This document shows, piece by piece, positions 3,501 to 42,194 of a stretch of DNA of 64,000 bases. Each line of letters starts with the position of its first letter. Position 1 is the stretch's first letter. A program made the translations under genes and the position numbers. Source of the DNA: Eubacteriales bacterium (GTDB taxonomy: Bacteria > Bacillota > Clostridia > Oscillospirales > CAG-382); contig JAZKZH010000007.1 of the NCBI GenBank assembly GCA_045612545.1, forward strand, positions 57,378 to 121,377, in the 5' to 3' direction. The notes under the pieces were generated by a model that worked only from the letters and a program-made list of their open reading frames with translations, searched no databases and was not told the DNA's origin.

Positions 3501-4310
3501 ATGAAGCCTATTTTTTGCACCGATACTACCCACGATAAGCACAGCACCTCCATTCACGGAGAAGAGTTTGTTTTCTCCACCGTATCCGAAACCACCAAAA
3601 AGGAGATCAACGCCTCGGTGAACAAGGCCGCAGAGTCCTTGAAAAAAGCGGAGCTGCCCACCTTTCTCCAAGCGCTTCGTTTTGCGGGACTTTGCGCTGC
3701 CGTGGTCTCCCTGATTTCCATGTTTGACGGAGAGCAGCTCCGGATCGCCTATTTGTTGCTTTGCATCGCAAGCGTAGGCGCTTACATTGGAATTTCCTTT
3801 TACGAAAACAAACGGAAAAAGGCGTTTTTGCAAAGCGAATCCGCTGACGTGCTGGCAGCCGCCATGGAAGAAGCCACCCGCCGCGTAGATGCAGAATTGG
3901 AGATTCCTCCCACCGCAGTGGCCGCAGACGTGATCTGCTTCCGCTACAAGGAAAAGGACGGCAAGCGGGAGGTCGTCAAGGCTATGCAGGGCGCGCAGTA
4001 TCTCAACGTGGAGATCTGCCTTTACAAAAACGATACCCATTTGTTTATTGCGGACATGGAGCGTGTGTTCGCCTTCCCCTTGCAGGGTATGAAGGGCATC
4101 ACCGCCGTGCGCGAACCCATCACCCTGTTCCAATGGAACAAGCCCTGTCCTCCCTCCGAGTACGGCTTGACCCATACCAACCGCGGGATCCCCACCGAGG
4201 TTCACTATATTTTGGAATTTACCGCCGGAAACGAGGACTACGGCATTTACTTCCCCTGCTACGAGCTGGAGGCTATCAAAAAACTCACCGGACTTTCCGA
4301 AACCGTTTGA
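3501..4310 (+). CDS. hypothetical membrane protein, paralog A of a tandem pair
   Basis: Starts MKPIFCTD, has two central TM helices, and ends with the block YILEF..GNEDYGIYFPCYELEAIKKLTGL shared with the next gene. Confidence 0.65.
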   Translation: MKPIFCTDTTHDKHSTSIHGEEFVFSTVSETTKKEINASVNKAAESLKKAELPTFLQALRFAGLCAAVVSLISMFDGEQLRIAYLLLCIASVGAYIGISFYENKRKKAFLQSESADVLAAAMEEATRRVDAELEIPPTAVAADVICFRYKEKDGKREVVKAMQGAQYLNVEICLYKNDTHLFIADMERVFAFPLQGMKGITAVREPITLFQWNKPCPPSEYGLTHTNRGIPTEVHYILEFTAGNEDYGIYFPCYELEAIKKLTGLSETV

Positions 4311-9213: not shown

Positions 9214-9288
9214 GCTGGTGTGGCTCAATGGCAGAGCAGCTGATTTGTAATCAGCAGGTTGGGGGTTCGACTCCCTTCACCAGCTCCA
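9214..9288 (+). tRNA. tRNA-Thr (anticodon UGU)
   Basis: Manual cloverleaf. Acceptor GCTGGTG/CACCAGC; D arm GCTCAATGGCAGAGC; anticodon stem GCTGA/TCAGC with loop TTTGTAA; T arm GGGGGTTCGACTCCC; encoded CCA. Confidence 0.9.
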
Positions 9289-9294
9289 GAATAT

Positions 9295-9379
9295 GGGAGA
9301 ATTCCCGAGTGGCCAAAGGGGACAGACTGTAAATCTGCTGGCATCGCCTTCGGTGGTTCGAATCCACCTTCTCCCACCA
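9295..9379 (+). tRNA. tRNA-Tyr (anticodon GUA), class II with long variable arm
   Basis: Acceptor GGGAGAA/TTCTCCC; anticodon loop CTGTAAA; long variable arm TGGCATCGCCTTCGGTGG region; T arm GGTTCGAATCC; encoded CCA. Confidence 0.9.
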
Positions 9380-9599: not shown

Positions 9600-11474
9600 A
9601 TGAATAAGATCCTTATCCTTTCCCATACCAAAAACGATTTGGTCACCACCATTTTAAGCACCTGCAAGGATGCCTATTGGAGTGCGCCCCAAGAGATCCA
9701 AATTACCGAAGTAGTGCAGTACGACGCGCTGTGCCTGCTGGCAGGCGACGGGGACAAGCCTTACATCCTTCCTGCGGCGTTGCGGGAAGCGGTGGAATCC
9801 ATGCGGGAGGCGGGCAAGCCCGTTTTCTGCGAATTCGTGGCTTCCATCGGCCCGGTGTACTCCGCTTCTCCCACTCCCACCTCCCATCACCGTATGATCT
9901 ATTCCGATCAATACGTCCCGGTGAAGGGGCTGACCAAGGGAGACGTGCTGGACGGACACGGAAACGAGGTGATTCCCTATTACTTCGTGCCGGAAACCGC
10001 CCTGCCCATTCTGACCTATCACGATTATATCTGCGCCCACGATCATTTCGACATGGAGGACGACACCTTCCACAGGGGCAAGCTTGCCCTTTGGAAACTG
10101 GATGGCAACACGCTGGTCTCCTCTGTCCGTCTGTGCAACTTCAATATCGCCCGCCTTGCGCCACGGGATTTCTGGGAGAAGGTACTGACCTATATCCTCT
10201 CCTTCTTGGCGGGAGAGGAGGTTGCTCCCCGCTTCTCGAAGGCTGTTTGCAGCCACGGGGTGGAAACCGATGCCGACAATACGGTAAAACGGGGCTTAGC
10301 TTGGATCAAAGACAGCCAAATCCTCCTTGACCGAGGCAAAAACGGCGTGTTGGAGGGCTTCTCTCACCTCATCATGGCAAAAGACGGCAAGCAATTGGTT
10401 GCCGATACCGTAAGAGCCGACTGCACCGGAGAGGTGGGCGGGGCGTTCCTGCTGGATTACCTCTGCACCGGAAGCAAGGAAAGTCTGGAGATCTTCAAGA
10501 ACACCGCTTCCTTCTGCTTTGACCAAATGCAGGTGAAAAGCGGACTTCACAAGGGAATGCTCCGCTGGACGGAAATGGCGTGGCAGGTGTGCTATCAGGA
10601 CGACGTTGCCAGAGCCATCCTCCCCACCATTTTGTACGAAAACTTCGGGGAGGGCGGTGAATATTTCGAGAACGCGGTGGAGGCGCTGGAATATCTGGTG
10701 AAAACCACGGGAACGGACGGTTTGCGTCCCTTCCGCACCGACTGTCCCCAGCTCACCGAGGAAGGGATGGAAGCGTTACGAACGGGAAAAGACGGCATTC
10801 CCTGCGCCCATTACAACGCATGGTACCACGCCGCGCTGTTGCTTGCCGCAAGGGCAGGCGCTCCCGCGCACTTCGCCGAGGTTGCGGAAAAGGGATTGTC
10901 CTCTATCATGGCGCTTTACCCCGAAACCCAGAGAGAAACCAGCGAGACGGAGGAGCTTTGCCGTTTGGTGTTCCCCTTGGCGGCGCTGTATGAATACACC
11001 CGCAAGGAAGAGCATTACCGCTGGCTTTTGCAGGTGGTATCCGACTTGGAAAAGGTACAGCACCCCTCCGGAGGCTATGCGGAGTGGGACACCGGCTACA
11101 AAGCCACCTGCGCCCGCAACCACACCGGGGAATGTGCTTTGCTTGCCAACAACGGCGACCCGGTAGCAGACCTTTTGTATTCCAACAACTGGTTGCCCTT
11201 GGGTTTTGCTTACGCCTATCTTGCTACGGGAGAGGATATTTTCCGCCGGAAATGGCAGGAGATCTGCACCTTCTTGAGCCGATGCCAGATCCATAGCGAC
11301 GACCCCAAGCTGGACGGCGGATGGACCCGCGCCATGGACATGAACCGTTTGGAGGCCTACGGTGTTCCCCACGACGTGGGTTGGGCGCCCTGCTGTATAG
11401 AAAGCGGCTGGACGGTGGGCGAGATCCTCATGGGAATTCAGTTTATGAAGGTAGCAGAGAAAGTCCGTTCCTAA
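9600..11474 (+). CDS. hypothetical cytoplasmic protein (624 aa), possibly alpha/alpha-toroid glycoside-hydrolase-like
   Basis: The start at MNKILIL is preceded by AAAAGGAG. There is no signal peptide. The coding frame is long and clean with normal composition. The function guess is weak. Confidence 0.7.
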   Translation: MNKILILSHTKNDLVTTILSTCKDAYWSAPQEIQITEVVQYDALCLLAGDGDKPYILPAALREAVESMREAGKPVFCEFVASIGPVYSASPTPTSHHRMIYSDQYVPVKGLTKGDVLDGHGNEVIPYYFVPETALPILTYHDYICAHDHFDMEDDTFHRGKLALWKLDGNTLVSSVRLCNFNIARLAPRDFWEKVLTYILSFLAGEEVAPRFSKAVCSHGVETDADNTVKRGLAWIKDSQILLDRGKNGVLEGFSHLIMAKDGKQLVADTVRADCTGEVGGAFLLDYLCTGSKESLEIFKNTASFCFDQMQVKSGLHKGMLRWTEMAWQVCYQDDVARAILPTILYENFGEGGEYFENAVEALEYLVKTTGTDGLRPFRTDCPQLTEEGMEALRTGKDGIPCAHYNAWYHAALLLAARAGAPAHFAEVAEKGLSSIMALYPETQRETSETEELCRLVFPLAALYEYTRKEEHYRWLLQVVSDLEKVQHPSGGYAEWDTGYKATCARNHTGECALLANNGDPVADLLYSNNWLPLGFAYAYLATGEDIFRRKWQEICTFLSRCQIHSDDPKLDGGWTRAMDMNRLEAYGVPHDVGWAPCCIESGWTVGEILMGIQFMKVAEKVRS

Positions 11475-11514
11475 GCATGCTGCAAAAAAGGGGCTAAGTC
11501 ATTCAGATGCAAAG

Positions 11515-11572
11515 AGCCGTGATTTGGTTCTCATCGGCGTATAAACATACGTCAGAGAGCCAAATCACGGCT
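11515..11572. terminator. long nested hairpin between convergent genes (putative bidirectional terminator)
   Basis: AGCCGTGATTTGGTTCTC pairs with GAGAGCCAAATCACGGCT (17 of 18). The inner stem is CGTAT/ATACG, and AAAAAA follows. Confidence 0.5.
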
Positions 11573-11658
11573 AAAAAACGCTCAAAATTGGCAAAACTTT
11601 ATGCCTTGTTTGATCTTGCGTTTTTGTTCTGCGCTGAATGAATCAGCCGCTTTCCTGT

Positions 11659-12747
11659 TTACTTCTTACAAAGCTCGTCCTTCAGCTGAGCGCAATCTGC
11701 GGAGTCTGTTTTGCCGTCTCCGTTCAGGTCGCCGCGGGCGGCTTTCTCCTCGGTAAGGATCTGCTCCCCTGCCGCATGGCGGGCAAGCACCATATAATCT
11801 ACAGGATCGGTTCTTCCGTCCCCGTTCACGTCCCCGTGGAAGTAAGGCAGCTCGGGCAGCTCATCAGTATATCGGGTGATCAAGGAAGCAACCTCTTCCC
11901 CGGTGCGTGCTTCGTCGTCCCCGTAAATAGCGGCAAGCTGTGTGCGATAGTTGGTTCTGTCCACGATCACAAGGCCGTGGTCGATGCCGGAGGTACACTT
12001 GGCATTGCGCGCGTTATCCACATTCAAAACAGCCTTGATGAAAGCATTGTACTCCGCATAATTATCGCTGACACGTCCCACGATAAAGCACCCCGCGGAG
12101 CTGTAGGAGGTGGGGGTGATGCCGTCGGTAGGCGCATTGCGGAACTGACTGCGGGCATGAATGTTGATGGCAGAGGAGGTAGAGGTATAGCTATCCGTCC
12201 GGGTACAACGTACTGCGGCGGCCTTACCGGAATTATCCTCCAAATGCAAAGCGGCGTAGCCACCCCCATGGTTGATGGAAATGATGTTGTATACGCCGTC
12301 TCTTACGGTGGGCACGGGTGTTCCTTCGTTGGTATCGGGATTACGGGGGTTATCCGGCAGAGTGGAACAGTTTTCCGATTCAAACACAACCACAGGCTTG
12401 CCGTCCACCTCCTGCACCACAGCGCAATAAGCGCCCAAGCGGTATTTGGTGTAGTCACCGTAAGTAGCATCCGTCACCAGATCGCTGCAGCCCTCGAAGA
12501 AAAAGACAATGCTATCCCCGTTTTTTAGATTTCTTGCCACACGATAATTGTTGGTTTCGGAAAGGATGTGGAATTTCATCATCCGATTCACGTAGGAGAT
12601 CTTTGCAGGATCGGAAAGGATGGTACAACGCACCCCGTTCAAATCCGCCTCGGTGTAATAAGTGGTTTCTGCCGCCGCTGTCCCCATGGGGATCGCGGTA
12701 AACAACAGACTTGCGGTGAGAAAAATATGAAGCCATTTCTTTTTCAT
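11659..12747 (-). CDS. secreted dockerin-containing protein with unknown catalytic module
   Basis: Signal peptide ending GTAAAE. The C-terminus has two Ca-binding dockerin repeats, GDVNGDGRTDPVDY and GDLNGDGKTDSADC. Upstream RBS AAAGGAGTG and promoter TTGACA-17-TATACT (12774-12802, minus strand). Confidence 0.85.
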   Translation of the reverse strand: MKKKWLHIFLTASLLFTAIPMGTAAAETTYYTEADLNGVRCTILSDPAKISYVNRMMKFHILSETNNYRVARNLKNGDSIVFFFEGCSDLVTDATYGDYTKYRLGAYCAVVQEVDGKPVVVFESENCSTLPDNPRNPDTNEGTPVPTVRDGVYNIISINHGGGYAALHLEDNSGKAAAVRCTRTDSYTSTSSAINIHARSQFRNAPTDGITPTSYSSAGCFIVGRVSDNYAEYNAFIKAVLNVDNARNAKCTSGIDHGLVIVDRTNYRTQLAAIYGDDEARTGEEVASLITRYTDELPELPYFHGDVNGDGRTDPVDYMVLARHAAGEQILTEEKAARGDLNGDGKTDSADCAQLKDELCKK

Positions 12748-12865: not shown

Positions 12866-13013
12866 AATCGAGTAGAAGGAGTATGACGCTTGCAGGAAAA
12901 GCCGTTTTTCGGCTACCGAAGGAATAACACTCTCAGGTTCTGCATTTTCGCAGATGAAGACTGTAAGCTGACGTCACCCCTCCCCAACACACCGCTGTCG
13001 GGGAGGTTCTTTT
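12866..13013 (+). ncRNA. candidate orphan small RNA (about 150 nt), unclassified
   Basis: Possible promoter TTGTGA (12832)-16-TACAAT (12854). Internal hairpins AGCCG/CGGCT and CTGC/GCAG. Terminator stem CCTCCCC/GGGGAGG (12979-13006) followed by TTCTTTT. No plausible ORF. The next gene has its own strong promoter after this terminator. Confidence 0.25.
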
Positions 13014-20801: not shown

Positions 20802-21905
20802 ATGTTCCGCATCATTTTTGGATTGGTATTCCTTTTGGGGATCGCGGGGATCTTCTATTTAGGCAACCGCCTTTGCAAATATCCCCCTTTTCGGGGCAGA
20901 AAGCTGCCCATTCGGTTGCTTGCCTACCCGGTGCTTCCTTTGCTTTGCTATTTAGCCGTGAAGCTGTTGGGGATCTCCAACTTCAATATCATCGTATTAC
21001 TTCTGCACTTGGTGATCTTTTGGCTGTTTTGCGACCTTGGCTTTTGGTTGGCAGAAAAGATCAGAAAAAAGAAGCCCCGCCGTTACTACGCGGGGGTCAC
21101 CGCCATTCTGTTGACGGTGGTGTATTTGGGGCTTGGATGGTTTTTTGCCCACCACGTGTTCGTCACGGAATATGATCTCACCACGGAAAAAGACACCCCT
21201 CCCCTCACCATCGTGCAGATCACGGACGCCCACATCGGCGTCACCTTGGACGGGGAGTCCTTTGCCCGCGAGATGGAAAAAGTGCAATCCCAACACCCCG
21301 ATGTCGTGGTGATCACCGGAGATTTTGTGGACGATGATTCTTCAAAAGAGGATATGCTCGCCGCCTGCGAGGCCTTGGGGGAGCTAAAAACTCCCTACGG
21401 CGTGTTTTTCGTCTACGGCAACCACGACAAGGGCTACTTCCGCGACGGCACCTTCACGGGGGAAGAGCTGCGGGAGGCTTTGACGGCCAACGGCGTGAAG
21501 ATCTTGGAGGATGAAGCCGTACTGCTGGCCAACTCCACCCAAGGCAACGTGTGCTACCTGGTGGGCAGAAAGGACGCTTCCGTAAGAGACCGCCTCTCTA
21601 TGGAAGAGCTGATGGCGGATCTTGACCCATCCGTCTACACCGTGGTGTTGGATCACCAGCCCACGGATTTTGACGCCGAGGCGCAGGCAAAGGTTGACCT
21701 GGTGCTGTGCGGACATACCCACGGCGGACACCTCTTCCCCACGGGACTTGTGGGCGTGTGGTTCGGGGGCAACGACCTCTGCTACGGCAAAGAGGTGCGG
21801 GAAGGCTCCACCTTTATCGTGTCCTCCGGCATCTCCGGCTGGGCAATGCCCTTTAAGACCGGGTGTATCTCCGAGATCGTGACTGTTCGCGTGGCGGAGG
21901 GATAA
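20802..21905 (+). CDS. membrane-bound metallophosphoesterase (calcineurin-like)
   Basis: N-terminal TM helices are followed by QITDAHIG, ITGDFVDD, GNHD and CGHTHGG phosphoesterase motifs. Confidence 0.85.
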   Translation: MFRIIFGLVFLLGIAGIFYLGNRLCKYPPFRGRKLPIRLLAYPVLPLLCYLAVKLLGISNFNIIVLLLHLVIFWLFCDLGFWLAEKIRKKKPRRYYAGVTAILLTVVYLGLGWFFAHHVFVTEYDLTTEKDTPPLTIVQITDAHIGVTLDGESFAREMEKVQSQHPDVVVITGDFVDDDSSKEDMLAACEALGELKTPYGVFFVYGNHDKGYFRDGTFTGEELREALTANGVKILEDEAVLLANSTQGNVCYLVGRKDASVRDRLSMEELMADLDPSVYTVVLDHQPTDFDAEAQAKVDLVLCGHTHGGHLFPTGLVGVWFGGNDLCYGKEVREGSTFIVSSGISGWAMPFKTGCISEIVTVRVAEG

Positions 21906-22090
21906 AAAAGCGAATGATTTTTACCACCGTTGGCATTTCGACGAGGCAAAAAGCCTCCCCTTAGTATAGGGGAAGAAGGGATTGTCCCACAGGTAAAACT
22001 TGCTTCCCGCTCTTTCACAAAAAGTATCTTTCAGAACGGTCAACCCCCTCAGTCGCGGTGCAAGCACCTTGACAGCTCCCGCCTTCCAGG

Positions 22091-22182
22091 GGGAGCCTTT
22101 CTCCGGCATCTCCGGCTGGGCAATGCCCTTTAAGACCGGCTGTATCTCCGAGATCGCGGTGATTCGCGTAGCGGGAGAATAA
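22091..22182 (+). pseudogene. detached second copy of the metallophosphoesterase 3' end
   Basis: It has 39-nt and 16-nt perfect blocks shared with 21828-21883, followed by a diverged tail and its own TAA. It encodes SGISGWAMPFKTGCISEIAVIRVAGE. Confidence 0.75.
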
Positions 22183-22191
22183 AGATGGAAT

Positions 22192-22363
22192 GGGACGCCG
22201 TGGACGTCGTCCCCTACAAACCCGCACATAGCTTGGTGAACAAAGATATACGCAATAAGATGGGCAAAAAACGATTTCCTACCGTTTTTATTGCGAGAGG
22301 TAATTCCATGTTTTCCCTCCTTCCCGATTCGGGCTCGTAGGGGACGACGTCCTTCGGCGTCCC
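22192..22363. repeat. REP doublet 1 (two GTAG-headed palindromic units, heads facing inward)
   Basis: 22192-22224 reads GGGACGCCGTGGACGTCGTCCCCTACAAACCCG (reverse orientation). 22330-22363 reads CGGGCTCGTAGGGGACGACGTCCTTCGGCGTCCC. Confidence 0.75.
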
Positions 22364-22460
22364 GCTTGCGTTTTGCTGCGAAACGGCTTTACACTATCTT
22401 TGATGCGTGAACTTTGTTTCAGTACCGAGAAACACACCGGCACTCGCTAAGGGGAGTCTT

Positions 22461-22513
22461 TCTCCGGGTGTATCTCCGAGATCGTGGTGATTCGCGTGGC
22501 GGGAGAAAAATAA
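22461..22513 (+). pseudogene. detached third, shorter copy of the metallophosphoesterase 3' end
   Basis: TCTCCGGGTGTATCTCCGAGATCGTGGTGATTCGCGTGGCGGGAGAAAAATAA encodes GCISEIVVIRVAGEK. Confidence 0.7.
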
Positions 22514-22572
22514 ACGCTCATAAATACCACAGCTCCCCTTGCTTAGGGGAGCCTTTGTTTTCTTGCTTTGGC

Positions 22573-22734
22573 GGGGCGCCGTGGGCGTCGCCCCCTACAG
22601 ACCCGAAACAAGATCGCGTTGAAAGATGACCTCCCCCCTCCCGCGCCAACGGCTTTTCACCCAACGCATTGCGTGCGTCTTTGTTTGCGCCGCCCCGGTT
22701 GCGGTTTCGTAGGGGATGACGCCCTCGGCATCCC
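22573..22734. repeat. REP doublet 2
   Basis: 22573-22605 reads GGGGCGCCGTGGGCGTCGCCCCCTACAGACCCG (reverse orientation). 22701-22734 reads GCGGTTTCGTAGGGGATGACGCCCTCGGCATCCC. Confidence 0.75.
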
Positions 22735-22793
22735 GTCGCATCCCCAAAAACAAAAAGGCTAAGCTATCAAAGCTCAGCCTTTTTTCGTTGTGA

Positions 22794-24215
22794 TCAAGAA
22801 GCGTTGCCCCAGTAGAACTCCCACAGGGTCACAATTCCGGTTTCGGAATCATACAGGAAGCAATCGAAGGAACACCGCCACTCCTCCGTGGGCAAGCAGT
22901 TGTATTCTTCTGTATGCCAATTGTACAGCAGGATGTAATCATACCCGCCCTCAAAAGGCAGGATAGCTTTTACCTCCTCCGGCAGATCCGGAAGCCAGTT
23001 TGCTTCCTCCGTCAAGCCTGCCTCAAAGGCTCCTCTCTCATCGGCGGAAATCACCGCAATGCAGACAGCGGTAATTTCGTAGGAGTCGTCCTCCAAAATG
23101 GCCTCCTCATAGAAGGTGGTGGTCATAAAATCCGTTTCCGGCAAGATCACTCCTGCATACTCCGCCAAAGAAAACGTTACCTGAGCATATTCTTCGTCGG
23201 TGTAATCCAGGTCGAATTCTGTATTTGCGATGGAGAACAAAAGCAATCCGCAAAGGATTCCCACCACGATGTTTTTCGTGGCTTTTTTCTTCTTGCTCCG
23301 CAGATATATACCCACCGCAAGGGAAGCAAGGGGCAGGATCATCATCAAGTAATATACCCAATAATAATCAAACAAAAGGAACGCGTCCCCCCCGGCCAAA
23401 AGACCCACGCCCGCCGCCGCAATGACGCCCAAAAAAGGCGATAAGAGGCACAGATAAACCAAGCCGATGGAGATCCACCGCCAAAGTCCTTTGGTGACAG
23501 ACAGCTTATTCTTTGGCAAATTGCTCTTCAAAAGAAGCTCCAGGCGGGAATCCGGCTCTAACGCTCCCTTTTGGAACAGACTTACGGGGAACAGATACAG
23601 CGTGCTTCCGTGATACAGATGGTAGAAGAAGTTATCCACCGACACGGTATTGATCTGATCGTAGGGAATGCAATGAACGATGGGCGTTCCCTCGTCGCCG
23701 TTGGTGGCAAACACCAGCTCGCCGTCATACAAGGAGACTTCCACCGTCTTCCCGGGGAAGCTCTTCATGGCGTAATTGCGTTCCTTGCGGTTGTTCCACC
23801 ACAGAAATACCATGATTCCCGTTGCCGCCGTGCAAAGTCCTGCGTAAAACGCGGCCTCCACCCAAAAGCCGGCAACCGTCACCACCGCAAAAAGAACGAT
23901 CATCGATATAAAAACAGAACTCTGCCCTTTGTACATCTTCTTCAAGAGCTCTTCTTCGTAGGTAAAGGTATGCTTTTCCAACGCCTTCGGTTCTTTTTCC
24001 TCCAAAGCTTGGGGCTCCTCTTCCTTCCCCAAAAGCTCGTCCACGGAGATGCCGAAGATGTCCTTCAACAAAAGCAGGTTATCCACCGTGGGCAGGGTCT
24101 GATCCTTCTCCCAAAGGCTCACCGTCTGGCGGCTCACCAAAAGCCGTTGCCCAAGCTCCTCTTGGGAAAGCCCGTTTTTCTTACGGTGCTCTTGAATACG
24201 TTGACCAACCGTCAT
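22794..24215 (-). CDS. XRE-family HTH regulator fused to a multi-pass membrane / YcxB-like sensor region (paralog 1)
   Basis: The start at MTVGQRIQEHRKKNGLSQEELG is preceded by GGAGG 8 nt upstream. A classic Cro/C1 HTH is followed by TM helices and a YHLYHG..LYLFP..F block shared with the 24491 and 26038 genes. Confidence 0.8.
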   Translation of the reverse strand: MTVGQRIQEHRKKNGLSQEELGQRLLVSRQTVSLWEKDQTLPTVDNLLLLKDIFGISVDELLGKEEEPQALEEKEPKALEKHTFTYEEELLKKMYKGQSSVFISMIVLFAVVTVAGFWVEAAFYAGLCTAATGIMVFLWWNNRKERNYAMKSFPGKTVEVSLYDGELVFATNGDEGTPIVHCIPYDQINTVSVDNFFYHLYHGSTLYLFPVSLFQKGALEPDSRLELLLKSNLPKNKLSVTKGLWRWISIGLVYLCLLSPFLGVIAAAGVGLLAGGDAFLLFDYYWVYYLMMILPLASLAVGIYLRSKKKKATKNIVVGILCGLLLFSIANTEFDLDYTDEEYAQVTFSLAEYAGVILPETDFMTTTFYEEAILEDDSYEITAVCIAVISADERGAFEAGLTEEANWLPDLPEEVKAILPFEGGYDYILLYNWHTEEYNCLPTEEWRCSFDCFLYDSETGIVTLWEFYWGNAS

Positions 24216-24306
24216 GCTATCGCCTCCATTTCTTTGCACTCAGTATACACCAAACCCAAGAAAAAAGCAAGCACCAATGGCTTGCTTTTGTCAAGTTGCG
24301 CTTGCA
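24027..24306. repeat. about 280-bp direct repeat, copy 1 (HTH-coding 5' end plus promoter/terminator region)
   Basis: Near-identical to 25709-25988. There are a few substitutions in the coding part and one short variable patch in the 5' UTR. Confidence 0.85.
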
Positions 24307-32382: not shown

Positions 32383-32459
32383 GTGGGTGTAGCTCAGTTG
32401 GTTAGAGCACTTGCTTGACATGCAAGGGGTCGTTGGTTCAAGTCCATTCATCCACACCA
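32383..32459 (+). tRNA. tRNA-Val (anticodon GAC)
   Basis: Acceptor GTGGGTG/CATCCAC (one G-U pair); D arm GCTCAGTTGGTTAGAGC; anticodon stem CTTGC/GCAAG with loop TTGACAT; T loop TTCAAGT; encoded CCA. There is one T-stem mismatch. Confidence 0.85.
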
Positions 32460-41477: not shown

Positions 41478-41996
41478 TCATTCGGGTTTTCCGTAAATCT
41501 CGCGGAAATACCATCGAGCCGGGTTATAAACCATATAATGCTCCACGGCCTCTCTGTCGTGAAAATTGCGGATCACATGGTCATATGCTCCCCGCTGGAA
41601 AACGGCTCTGCCGATCGCTTTGTTACACTGCCTTTTAAACATGGACACAAAGCAAGCGATCACTTCTGAAGCGGGTTCTTTCCTCTCCTGCCAGTCATCT
41701 TCAAGAACGGTTGCAATAAGATGAATGTGGTTTGGCATGATCACATAACGTTCCACACGCAGGTTTTTAGAGCGATTCGTCATCAAAAGATATTTCTCCG
41801 CGATTTTGCCGTAGTCCGACAAAACCACACGAACATAAGCTCCATCCCCATTATAAGGATAATCTCCCTCCGTCCCGGGTTCAATGCGAGAGAGAATGCA
41901 AGCTTTGTCCTTCACACAAATCGTCAGAAAATACGAGCCACCGTTGCTGTAACTATAACCTGCTAAACGGGTGTTTTTCCTTTTGGGAAGAGACAT
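41478..41996 (-). CDS. REP-associated tyrosine transposase (RAYT; IS200/IS605 TnpA-like Y1 HUH enzyme)
   Basis: 172 aa. The HUH motif is MPNHIHLI, and the C-terminal QRGAYDHVIRN....YMVYNPARW carries the catalytic Tyr helix. RBS AAGGAG. A REP doublet lies immediately upstream. Confidence 0.8.
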   Translation of the reverse strand: MSLPKRKNTRLAGYSYSNGGSYFLTICVKDKACILSRIEPGTEGDYPYNGDGAYVRVVLSDYGKIAEKYLLMTNRSKNLRVERYVIMPNHIHLIATVLEDDWQERKEPASEVIACFVSMFKRQCNKAIGRAVFQRGAYDHVIRNFHDREAVEHYMVYNPARWYFREIYGKPE

Positions 41997-42022: not shown

Positions 42023-42194
42023 GCGGAGCGTCTTACGGAGGTAACCCTCCTAAAGCCGCTCCCTACGGTCACAAACCCTGTTAGAGAGAAAAATATTCCG
42101 CTCATTTCATCGCAATAAGCGGCATTTTTTGCAAATGCTTCAAAAAATGTAGGGGGCGGCTTAAAACGCCGTTTCCGGCGGATAGACGCCCCGC
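42023..42194. repeat. REP doublet 3, directly upstream of the RAYT gene
   Basis: 42023-42078 ends ...GCCGCTCCCTACGGTCACAAACCC (reverse orientation). 42149-42194 reads GTAGGGGGCGGCTTAAAACGCCGTTTCCGGCGGATAGACGCCCCGC. The GTAG heads face inward as in doublets 1 and 2. Confidence 0.7.

Follow-up and report, generated by a model that had tools for sequence, protein, structure and literature searches.

The window analysed here is a stretch of 64,000 nucleotides (nt) of contig JAZKZH010000007.1 from a Eubacteriales bacterium, and it contains, at 22 kb, an intergenic gap of 888 nt (21906-22793) with convergent genes on both sides. Four copies of a short hairpin preceded by the tetranucleotide GTAG lie within this gap, in two inverted pairs (hereafter referred to as doublets A and B). 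According to a proposal made from the window sequence alone (hereafter referred to as the original prediction), these copies are repetitive extragenic palindromic (REP) units, the doublets resemble REPINs (REP doublets forming hairpins), and a gene further along the window encodes a REP-associated tyrosine transposase (RAYT). The features of the gap and its two neighbouring genes are as follows:

20802-21905, plus strand: metallophosphoesterase gene, left neighbour of the gap
22192-22224, minus strand: REP unit 1, left arm of doublet A; leader CGGGTTT; covariance model score 43.1 bits; folding energy -8.9 kcal/mol
22330-22363, plus strand: REP unit 2, right arm of doublet A; leader CGGGCTC; 39.0 bits; -9.8 kcal/mol
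22573-22605, minus strand: REP unit 3, left arm of doublet B; stem GGGGCG/CGCCCC; leader CGGGTCT; 46.0 bits
22701-22734, plus strand: REP unit 4, right arm of doublet B; stem GGGATG/CATCCC; leader GCGGTTTC; 47.8 bits
22192-22363, no strand assigned: doublet A, REPIN-like, 172 nt; heads inward and hairpins outermost; spacer of 119 nt (22218-22336)
22573-22734, no strand assigned: doublet B, REPIN-like, 162 nt; head-to-head; spacer of 110 nt (22599-22708)
22794-24239, minus strand: gene for a helix-turn-helix (HTH, XRE-type) protein of 481 aa, right neighbour of the gap

The pattern GTAGGGGNNGACGNCC(N1-2)CGGCNNCCC matched the window at four positions, two on the minus strand (22192-22217 and 22573-22598) and two on the plus strand (22337-22363 and 22709-22734), and gave no match in 100 shuffles of the window. 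All four units were thus found where they had been predicted, with scores of 39-48 bits against a covariance model built from homologues elsewhere; the next match in the window scored 12 bits. The predicted head motif, CGGGNNNGTAGGGG, is exact in only three units, unit 4 having GCGGTTTCGTAGGGG, in which the spacing is shifted by one base. The anticipated over-representation was also observed in the window, where CGGGNNNGTAGGGG occurs three times, as opposed to an expected 0.04. On its own strand, unit 1 consists of GTAG (22217-22214) followed by the hairpin GGGACG-A-CG-TCCA-CG-G-CGTCCC (22213-22192); in unit 2, GTAG (22337-22340) is followed by a hairpin with a 5-nt loop. The common fold comprises GTAG, a 6-bp foot (GGGNNG/CNNCCC) beginning with GGG/CCC, a 1x1 A.G mismatch, a 2-bp upper stem (CG/CG) and a loop of 4-5 nt, and the imperfect palindromes described originally (GGGACG, GGGGCG and GGGATG) were confirmed as hairpins by folding. 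The foot is 1 bp shorter than the 7 bp demanded by the published RNAMotif rule (PMC6006769). GTAG abuts the stem in all four window units and in 139 of the 139 homologues listed, an arrangement that is built into the search pattern. A generic scan of the window for GTAG followed by a hairpin found nothing comparable outside the four units. No Rfam family matched the units, either at gathering thresholds over the whole window or at E≤1 over 21800-22900. A terminator scan flagged nearby hairpins at 21954-21975, 22532-22552 and 22752-22784, with the REP units themselves left unflagged.

The genomes of GTDB species were scanned with the unit pattern, and at least 120 stretches were matched; the unit statistics given below are those of the matches listed. 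The hosts among these matches were nearly all gut Clostridia metagenome-assembled genomes (MAGs), with Oscillospiraceae, Ruminococcaceae, Acutalibacteraceae, Eubacteriales and Monoglobus labels, together with a single cultured isolate, Pseudoflavonifractor capillosus An827 (locus L019). The few matches in Kiritimatiellaeota and Akkermansiaceae bins might stem from misbinned contigs. The two free stem positions formed Watson-Crick pairs in 136 of 139 instances, with 10 pair types represented; positions -2 and -1 were pyrimidines, and position +1 was G in 129 of 139 instances. None of these positions is constrained by the search pattern, and they therefore provide independent evidence of conservation. 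In an alignment of 52 sequences, 99% of the cells were paired, compensatory changes were present at both variable pairs, and the covariation score (0.277) exceeded that of shuffled alignments (0.054) and of slid structures (≤0.061). This pattern of substitution points to selection on the hairpin structure. As the compensatory changes keep the stem, GGGACG, GGGGCG and GGGATG can be considered variants of the same stem, and the fact that a hairpin conserved in structure has GTAG at its foot supports the interpretation of the tetranucleotide and palindrome as a REP. The features retained across gut Clostridia species are GTAG, the GGG foot, the A.G mismatch, the CG clamp and an NCCY loop, and the most unusual aspect of this family is the breadth of species keeping a single REP core.

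The covariance model identified 190 units in 100 loci. Neighbouring units in the various species were arranged head-to-head, tail-to-tail or in direct arrays, and a single unit was present at 41 of 101 loci. In a rough test, 45% of units lay within open reading frames (ORFs), versus 86% of random positions; this test is crude, because the greedy ORF set holds spurious ORFs (21921-22229, for example), and the value of 45% therefore overstates intragenic placement. Tail-to-tail, “double-foot” doublets were seen at L057 (6301-6451) and also at L005, L037, L045, L083 and L104, with about 91-93 nt between model matches; a central CCCCGGCAAA/TTTGCCGGGG hairpin is visible at L057, and the flank motif “atccccggc” is common to L005, L037, L045, L083 and L104. 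The doublet architecture appears, from these comparisons, to be lineage-specific. At L018 (4048-4402) and L071 (2551-2585), units lie inside G+C-rich, internally repetitive, coding-like sequence, possibly as in-frame REP insertions into non-RAYT proteins.

In both window doublets, the heads point inwards, as predicted, and are 119 and 110 nt apart; the distance of 95-120 nt given originally had been measured from the CGGG leader. Doublet A can be folded as a single long hairpin (-45.9 kcal/mol, z = -7.6), with the doublet leaders complementary to each other only in part. Metagenome contigs were also scanned with the unit pattern extended by the lineage-specific CGGG leader, which yielded 13 contigs from one assembly (JAEIGA01). 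Head-to-head doublets of 162-180 nt were found at eight distinct loci: window doublet A, window doublet B (equivalent to that of L137), L134, L135/L139, L136, L141, L144 and L049, a sheep-gut MAG locus. At these eight loci, the two arms are distinguished by their leaders, “tttcgggttc” in one and “tgcgtattc/tgcggtttc” in the other, and the spacers share the motifs CACGCAAT and TTGCGnGAG. The homology among the doublets spans the spacer and ends at the outer ends of the hairpins, the flanks being unrelated. Mean pairwise identity was 70% for whole elements and 58% for flanks; for spacers, it was 61%, versus 54% for shuffled spacers. Doublet A is homologous over its full length to the doublets of L136 and L144 (72-73% identity). 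A search for direct repeats at the junctions of the eight doublets revealed no target-site duplication. The recurrence of an element of this size at unrelated loci in relatives lends support to the description of the doublets as REPIN-like.

The orthologous region was compared between the window and four related loci. The region following the phosphoesterase gene is only 38 nt long in L122 (74% protein identity), in which it contains a bidirectional terminator only, and 40 nt long in L123 (70% protein identity). In L121 (90% nt identity), it reaches 296 nt, with neither a canonical unit nor a gene-end duplication. Both doublets are absent from these three loci, whereas doublet B is present in L137 (about 95% nt identity over the doublet B segment), which lacks doublet A and the gene-end duplications described below. 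The absence of doublets from the orthologous regions of relatives suggests that the 22-kb REP cluster is a recent, lineage-specific gain. The HTH gene on the right of the gap is also an indel: it is present in L122 and absent from L121, L137 and L123, in which the terminator or intergenic region adjoins the MatE gene.

Further observations concern the sequence around the units. A possible decayed unit of the long type described below (TAGGGGAAG...CTTCCCG) lies in the same gap (21967-22011, plus strand), with a weak match (9.3 bits, E = 1.9), and positions 1570-1627 of L121 constitute the homologous segment. The surrounding window segment 21950-22030 shares with L121 1540-1627 a conserved segment, agcctccccttagta..ggggaag..gggattgtccca..cttcc.gctctttcacaaaaa, and window segment 22364-22450 resembles L121 1468-1530; the two window segments suggest the presence of older, eroded REPIN material at the 22-kb locus. 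In addition, the 3' end of the metallophosphoesterase gene (its last 83 nt, 21824-21906) is copied twice downstream, at 22101-22183 and 22464-22510. The second copy is 88% identical, in frame and ends with TAA; the third, over 47 aligned nt, shares 91% identity with the second, also ends with TAA and has an internal deletion of about 30 nt. A REP doublet follows directly after the second copy, and a hairpin and then a doublet after the third. Similar tandem repeats of about 303 nt with REP units are present at L049 (6890-7350) and L030 (1026-1363), and the gene-end copies suggest a REP-associated tandem duplication. The att-type repeats of an integrative element were considered as a possible origin for the three gene ends and disfavoured, because the intervals (194 and 280 nt) are made of REP-related segments, which favours REP-associated tandem duplication.

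The second site of interest in the window is located at 41.5-42.2 kb, where the original prediction placed a RAYT gene and a third doublet (hereafter referred to as doublet C). Both are real, although the hairpins of this doublet are a longer variant:

41478-41996, minus strand: gene for a RAYT-type Y1/HUH protein of 172 aa; HUH motif NHIH; tyrosine motif YMVYNP
42024-42066, minus strand: long-hairpin REP unit, the arm nearest the RAYT gene; GTAG, foot GGAGCG/CGCTCC, internal loop, GGAGG/CCTCC; folding energy -15.2 kcal/mol, z = -5.4
42149-42193, plus strand: long-hairpin REP unit, distal arm; GTAG, foot GGGGCG/CGCCCC, internal loop, CGCCG/CGGCG; -14.7 kcal/mol
42024-42193, no strand assigned: doublet C, 170 nt, head-to-head, between the ACT-domain and RAYT genes and 28 nt upstream of the RAYT start codon

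In the window RAYT, the NHIH motif occupies residues 89-92 and YMVYNP residues 154-159. Seven residues are invariant over an alignment of 34 family members (H90, H92, Q134, D139, R143, Y154 and N158), and all family-invariant residues are present in the window RAYT. Its best match in the PDB was E. coli TnpA_REP (4ER8), with weak support (E = 0.0076) and with the HUH and tyrosine motifs aligned; the profile of the 34-member family matched 4ER8 at 1.5e-10, as opposed to about 3e-3 for the TnpAs of IS200/IS605 insertion sequences. The residues listed as contacting GTAG in E. coli TnpA_REP (PMC6006769) were assigned equivalents through the 4ER8 alignment: W94 corresponds to F133, Q95 to Q134, E100 to D139, H101 to H140 and R104 to R143 of the window RAYT. 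The gene lies between ACT-domain and SSF-symporter genes in relatives with 99% and 84% amino-acid identity, and no second RAYT copy was found within the 64-kb window. The window RAYT is intact and appears to behave as a single-copy, syntenic gene, as described for RAYTs.

Doublet C shares its architecture and length class with doublets A and B. The canonical covariance model assigned its long units only 8.7 and 10.9 bits, the latter score being that of the unit at 42149-42193, in which the head, the foot and the G at position +1 match the canonical model, with 28 nt in place of the upper part. Where the RAYT is 84% identical, the doublet C units are near-invariant, whereas the 82-nt spacer diverges. 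The position of doublet C is equivalent to that of a canonical doublet lying 5' of a RAYT paralogue in L136. This paralogue, of the same clade as the window RAYT and 48.6% identical to it, is followed by a canonical unit, 7 nt beyond the stop codon, and preceded by the canonical doublet 5' of its start codon, the latter being 73% identical to window doublet A. The L136 arrangement is a complete REPtron. The window RAYT, or an unseen paralogue, is a candidate enzyme for the 22-kb units.

We consider it probable that the four units are GTAG-tagged REPs in two REPIN-like elements (162-172 nt), each with a spacer that is in part self-complementary, moved by a RAYT-type Y1/HUH enzyme. This reading is built on the sequence, structure and covariation of the units, the repetition of the doublets at many loci, their presence/absence polymorphism and the physical linkage of REPs to a RAYT gene, and cleavage, mobilisation and the choice of cognate RAYT would follow by analogy. 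As in E. coli TnpA_REP, the enzyme would bind the folded hairpin on single-stranded DNA, at the replication fork, for example, read GTAG at the foot of the hairpin, cut beside the structure and rejoin the strand. The doublet would thereby be copied or moved as a unit, without target-site duplication. Units inserted downstream of genes would also seed local tandem duplications, and they probably also act as RNA or DNA structures at 3' ends.

Several findings weigh against this interpretation. The REPs of the window RAYT are of a different, longer subtype and are found on its 5' side only, the symporter gene lying directly against its 3' end, and its pairing with the 22-kb units is therefore no more than putative. 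The window holds just two REP sites, 19 kb apart, with four canonical and two long units in total. The best and only NCBIfam match of the window RAYT, NF047646 (REP_Tyr_transpos), scored 53.6 bits, below the 80-bit cut-off, and no Pfam match, to Y1_Tnp or any other family, was obtained at E≤1; the RAYTs of REP-bearing relatives scored 72-74.5 bits with the NCBIfam model and passed Pfam Y1_Tnp. The window RAYT also has FQ where WQ is expected. The long-hairpin fold of doublet B is weak (z = -2.45). The heterogeneous arrangement of units across species, with its many single-unit loci, indicates that the doublet is not the universal unit of this REP family. Finally, the polymorphic locus is rearranged, and no clean pair of empty and filled sites is available.

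The hairpins could alternatively be structures serving the host (mRNA 3'-end stabilisers, attenuators or protein-binding sites), spread by local duplication and with no involvement of the RAYT-like protein. The units do lie between convergent genes and beside terminator-like hairpins, the 3' end of a gene has been tandemly duplicated together with the doublets, as for the similar repeats of L049 and L030, and REPs believed to be transcribed typically lie downstream of genes (PMC3733652). However, the units have no T-tail and are found in both orientations, homologous doublets are present at no fewer than eight loci with unrelated flanks, a distribution that local duplication cannot yield, and a structural role would need neither the invariant GTAG outside the stem nor the RAYT association. 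We consider a purely host-serving origin unlikely; a 3'-end role is nonetheless compatible with mobile REPs, as known REPs do both. It is still less probable that the doublets are miniature IS200/IS605 derivatives (palindrome-associated transposable elements) moved by a classical TnpA_IS200 rather than by a RAYT. The enzyme superfamily (Y1/HUH) would be identical, the related proteins of other species pass the Pfam Y1_Tnp threshold and the lack of target-site duplication would also fit, but the window protein has the class-2 Y-x3-NP signature rather than the Y-x3-Q of TnpA_IS200 (PMC6006769, Table 1), it is not matched by the NCBIfam model transpos_IS200, and its family profile favours TnpA_REP by about seven orders of magnitude in E-value. 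Moreover, the gene appears to be single-copy and is syntenic, without an adjoining tnpB, and the hairpins are inverted rather than direct and carry a 5' GTAG.

The presence of the unit in frame within the RAYT genes of L053, L118, L119, L120 and L008 raised the possibility that the doublets are decayed fragments of such genes. The intragenic pairs are tail-to-tail with HUH-coding sequence between them, whereas the window doublets are head-to-head, and their spacers display no RAYT similarity, the tblastn matches (E>6) covering the units only; doublets at unrelated loci share spacer motifs instead. A RAYT pseudogene origin was rejected, given the lack of tblastn similarity beyond the units, and decay from RAYT genes seems very improbable. 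The size of the element (about 170 nt) and of its inverted ends (roughly 33-43 nt) would also fit a conventional miniature inverted-repeat transposable element (MITE), the terminal inverted repeats of which are moved in trans by a DDE transposase. Each end of the window doublets is, however, an individually folded, covarying hairpin next to GTAG, other species frequently carry single units or differently arranged ones, and no matching DDE element was seen. A DDE-type MITE was rejected on the basis of the absence of target-site duplications at the eight loci, and we accord this origin the same very slight probability as the decay of RAYT genes.

With mobilisation by a RAYT-type enzyme as the preferred reading, the system can be compared with those already described. 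In GTAG-type REPs, by definition, no more than 2 nt separate GT[AG]G from the foot of the hairpin 3' of it (Di Nocera 2013; Quentin 2018). By its motifs and hairpins, the system matches TnpA_REP subclass 2.4 (Quentin, Siguier, Chandler and Fichant 2018, PMC6006769), which corresponds to the Group 4 RAYTs of Bertels et al. (2017, PMC5581495). Subclass 2.4 is characterised by the HUH motif NH[IFV]H, the W motif WQ and the tyrosine motif YIxNNP, by REPs with a foot of three G-C pairs, “double-foot” forms and in-frame insertions in the tnpA_REP gene, and by a low REP abundance and patchy taxonomic distribution, with Cyanobacteria, Bacteroidetes and “various phyla” named (PMC6006769). The system studied here resembles this subclass in the NHIH and Y-x3-NP motifs of the window RAYT and the size of the proteins (about 170-190 aa), in its canonical GT[AG]G REPs with a foot of three consecutive G-C pairs, in the tail-to-tail forms of L005, L057 and other loci, in the in-frame REPs within the RAYT genes of several species, and in the probably low abundance and the patchy distribution of its REPs. 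It differs in that the clade of the window RAYT has lost the intragenic REP segments, in the presence of FQ rather than WQ and YMVYNP rather than YIxNNP in the window RAYT, and in its host, a gut Clostridia lineage not among the taxa named. The intragenic units of the species examined lie one N-terminal to the HUH motif and one just after it.

Inverted REP pairs around a short spacer, present at many loci as non-autonomous repeats, also make up the REPINs described in Pseudomonas fluorescens SBW25 and E. coli (Bertels and Rainey 2011, PMC3116915). Those REPINs can fold as a long hairpin over the whole element, as doublet A does and doublet B does only weakly, and are linked to a RAYT that is single-copy and vertically inherited, as the window RAYT appears to be. 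The RAYTs concerned there belong to Groups 2 and 3, and tens to hundreds of copies are present per genome, the number here probably being low; in addition, at 110-119 nt the spacers of the window doublets are long, their two arms differ in leader (alpha and beta), and the REP core is common to many species rather than species- or genus-specific. In the REPs and bacterial interspersed mosaic elements (BIMEs) of E. coli, with their TnpA_REP (4ER8), GTAG likewise immediately precedes an imperfect hairpin containing an internal mismatch, and units of alternating orientation are clustered downstream of genes. Most of the GTAG-contact residues of the E. coli enzyme are kept in the window RAYT (Q, H and R, with E replaced by D); the E. 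coli system belongs to subclass 2.2 and its hairpin sequence is unrelated. Resemblance to IS200/IS605 lies in the lack of target duplication and would extend to the single-strand Y1/HUH chemistry and the recognition of subterminal hairpins, in contrast to the differences in tyrosine signature, gene context and hairpin orientation noted above.

In L053, L118, L119 and L120, the unit is present twice within the RAYT gene, always in frame 0, and the RAYT gene of L008 has one exact copy and one weaker match. The original prediction was tied to the doublets not falling inside genuine coding sequence in related genomes; the presence of units in RAYT genes elsewhere does not refute it, since in-frame location is a published hallmark of subclass 2.4. 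The peptide VG.D.LG.P, ahead of the HUH motif, is the product of the forward copy, and G.PR.S.PT, immediately behind this motif, that of the reverse copy. The pairs are tail-to-tail around the HUH-coding segment, with 133-142 nt between the units, at the following positions:

L053, 6242-6447
L119, 3272-3465
L118, 6540-6724
L120, 1621-1814
L008, 3451-3650

The fixed pair of positions and fixed frame of these units are striking, in-frame insertion itself being known for subclass 2.4. The window RAYT has EPGTEGDYPYNGDG and EDDWQERKEPAS at the two positions rather than intragenic REPs, its clade having replaced both segments. One speculative explanation, which we regard as possible but doubtful, is that the REP hairpin has remained near-unchanged across many gut Clostridia because its own RAYT gene contains it twice as a fixed part of the reading frame, as inverted copies flanking the HUH strand. 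Enzyme and substrate would then form a single co-inherited or co-transferred module, and the intragenic hairpins would be functional rather than tolerated insertions. If so, these hairpins could serve in autoregulation or in RAYT-catalysed excision of the catalytic core, and the REP-RAYT relationship would be unlike the species-specific, strictly extragenic relationship of Proteobacteria.

Analyses of REP/REPIN-RAYT systems have dealt almost wholly with Proteobacteria; surveys have added Cyanobacteria and Bacteroidetes. No description of such systems in Clostridia was found in the literature searched, and the GTAG-REP survey (PMC3733652) makes no mention of Firmicutes. The findings reported here extend this range, documenting a well-organised system in uncultured gut Clostridia (Oscillospirales-type MAGs). 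The genome had been described as high-GC, which holds only in relative terms, the G+C content of the window being 53.6%. Members of the REP family can be recovered with the search pattern and covariance model, and the REP core can be studied in the cultured isolate P. capillosus An827, which carries it. In practical terms, the units may break assemblies, generate strain-level indels and seed tandem duplications copying gene 3' ends, and their in-frame insertion into proteins means that annotators of gut MAGs should recognise them. The system also provides a Gram-positive test case for a lasting, vertically inherited partnership between REPIN populations and a domesticated transposase.

There may be a second type of REP in these genomes. 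GTAGGGGGCGATTCACG-like units (GGGGCGATTCACGAATCGCCC) were seen in intergenic DNA, at L049 (7344-7370) and in the upstream flank of L090. The two insertion positions are occupied by VGAIHESP and RAIRESPL in the RAYT homologues P0166, P0167 and P0169, and RAYTs of this sort may, to judge from their motifs, form a separate cognate REP/RAYT pair with the GTAGGGGGCGATTCACG-like units. Elsewhere, the segment 2196-3866 of L142, which corresponds to window 11462-11677 (75-78% identity), contains about 1.4 kb of extra sequence, including a canonical REP unit (3621-3654). The window also has ordinary, unrelated features, a glycine riboswitch aptamer (35.5 bits, just over the gathering score) and three tRNA genes, at 12883-12973, 9214-9376 and 32383-32456.

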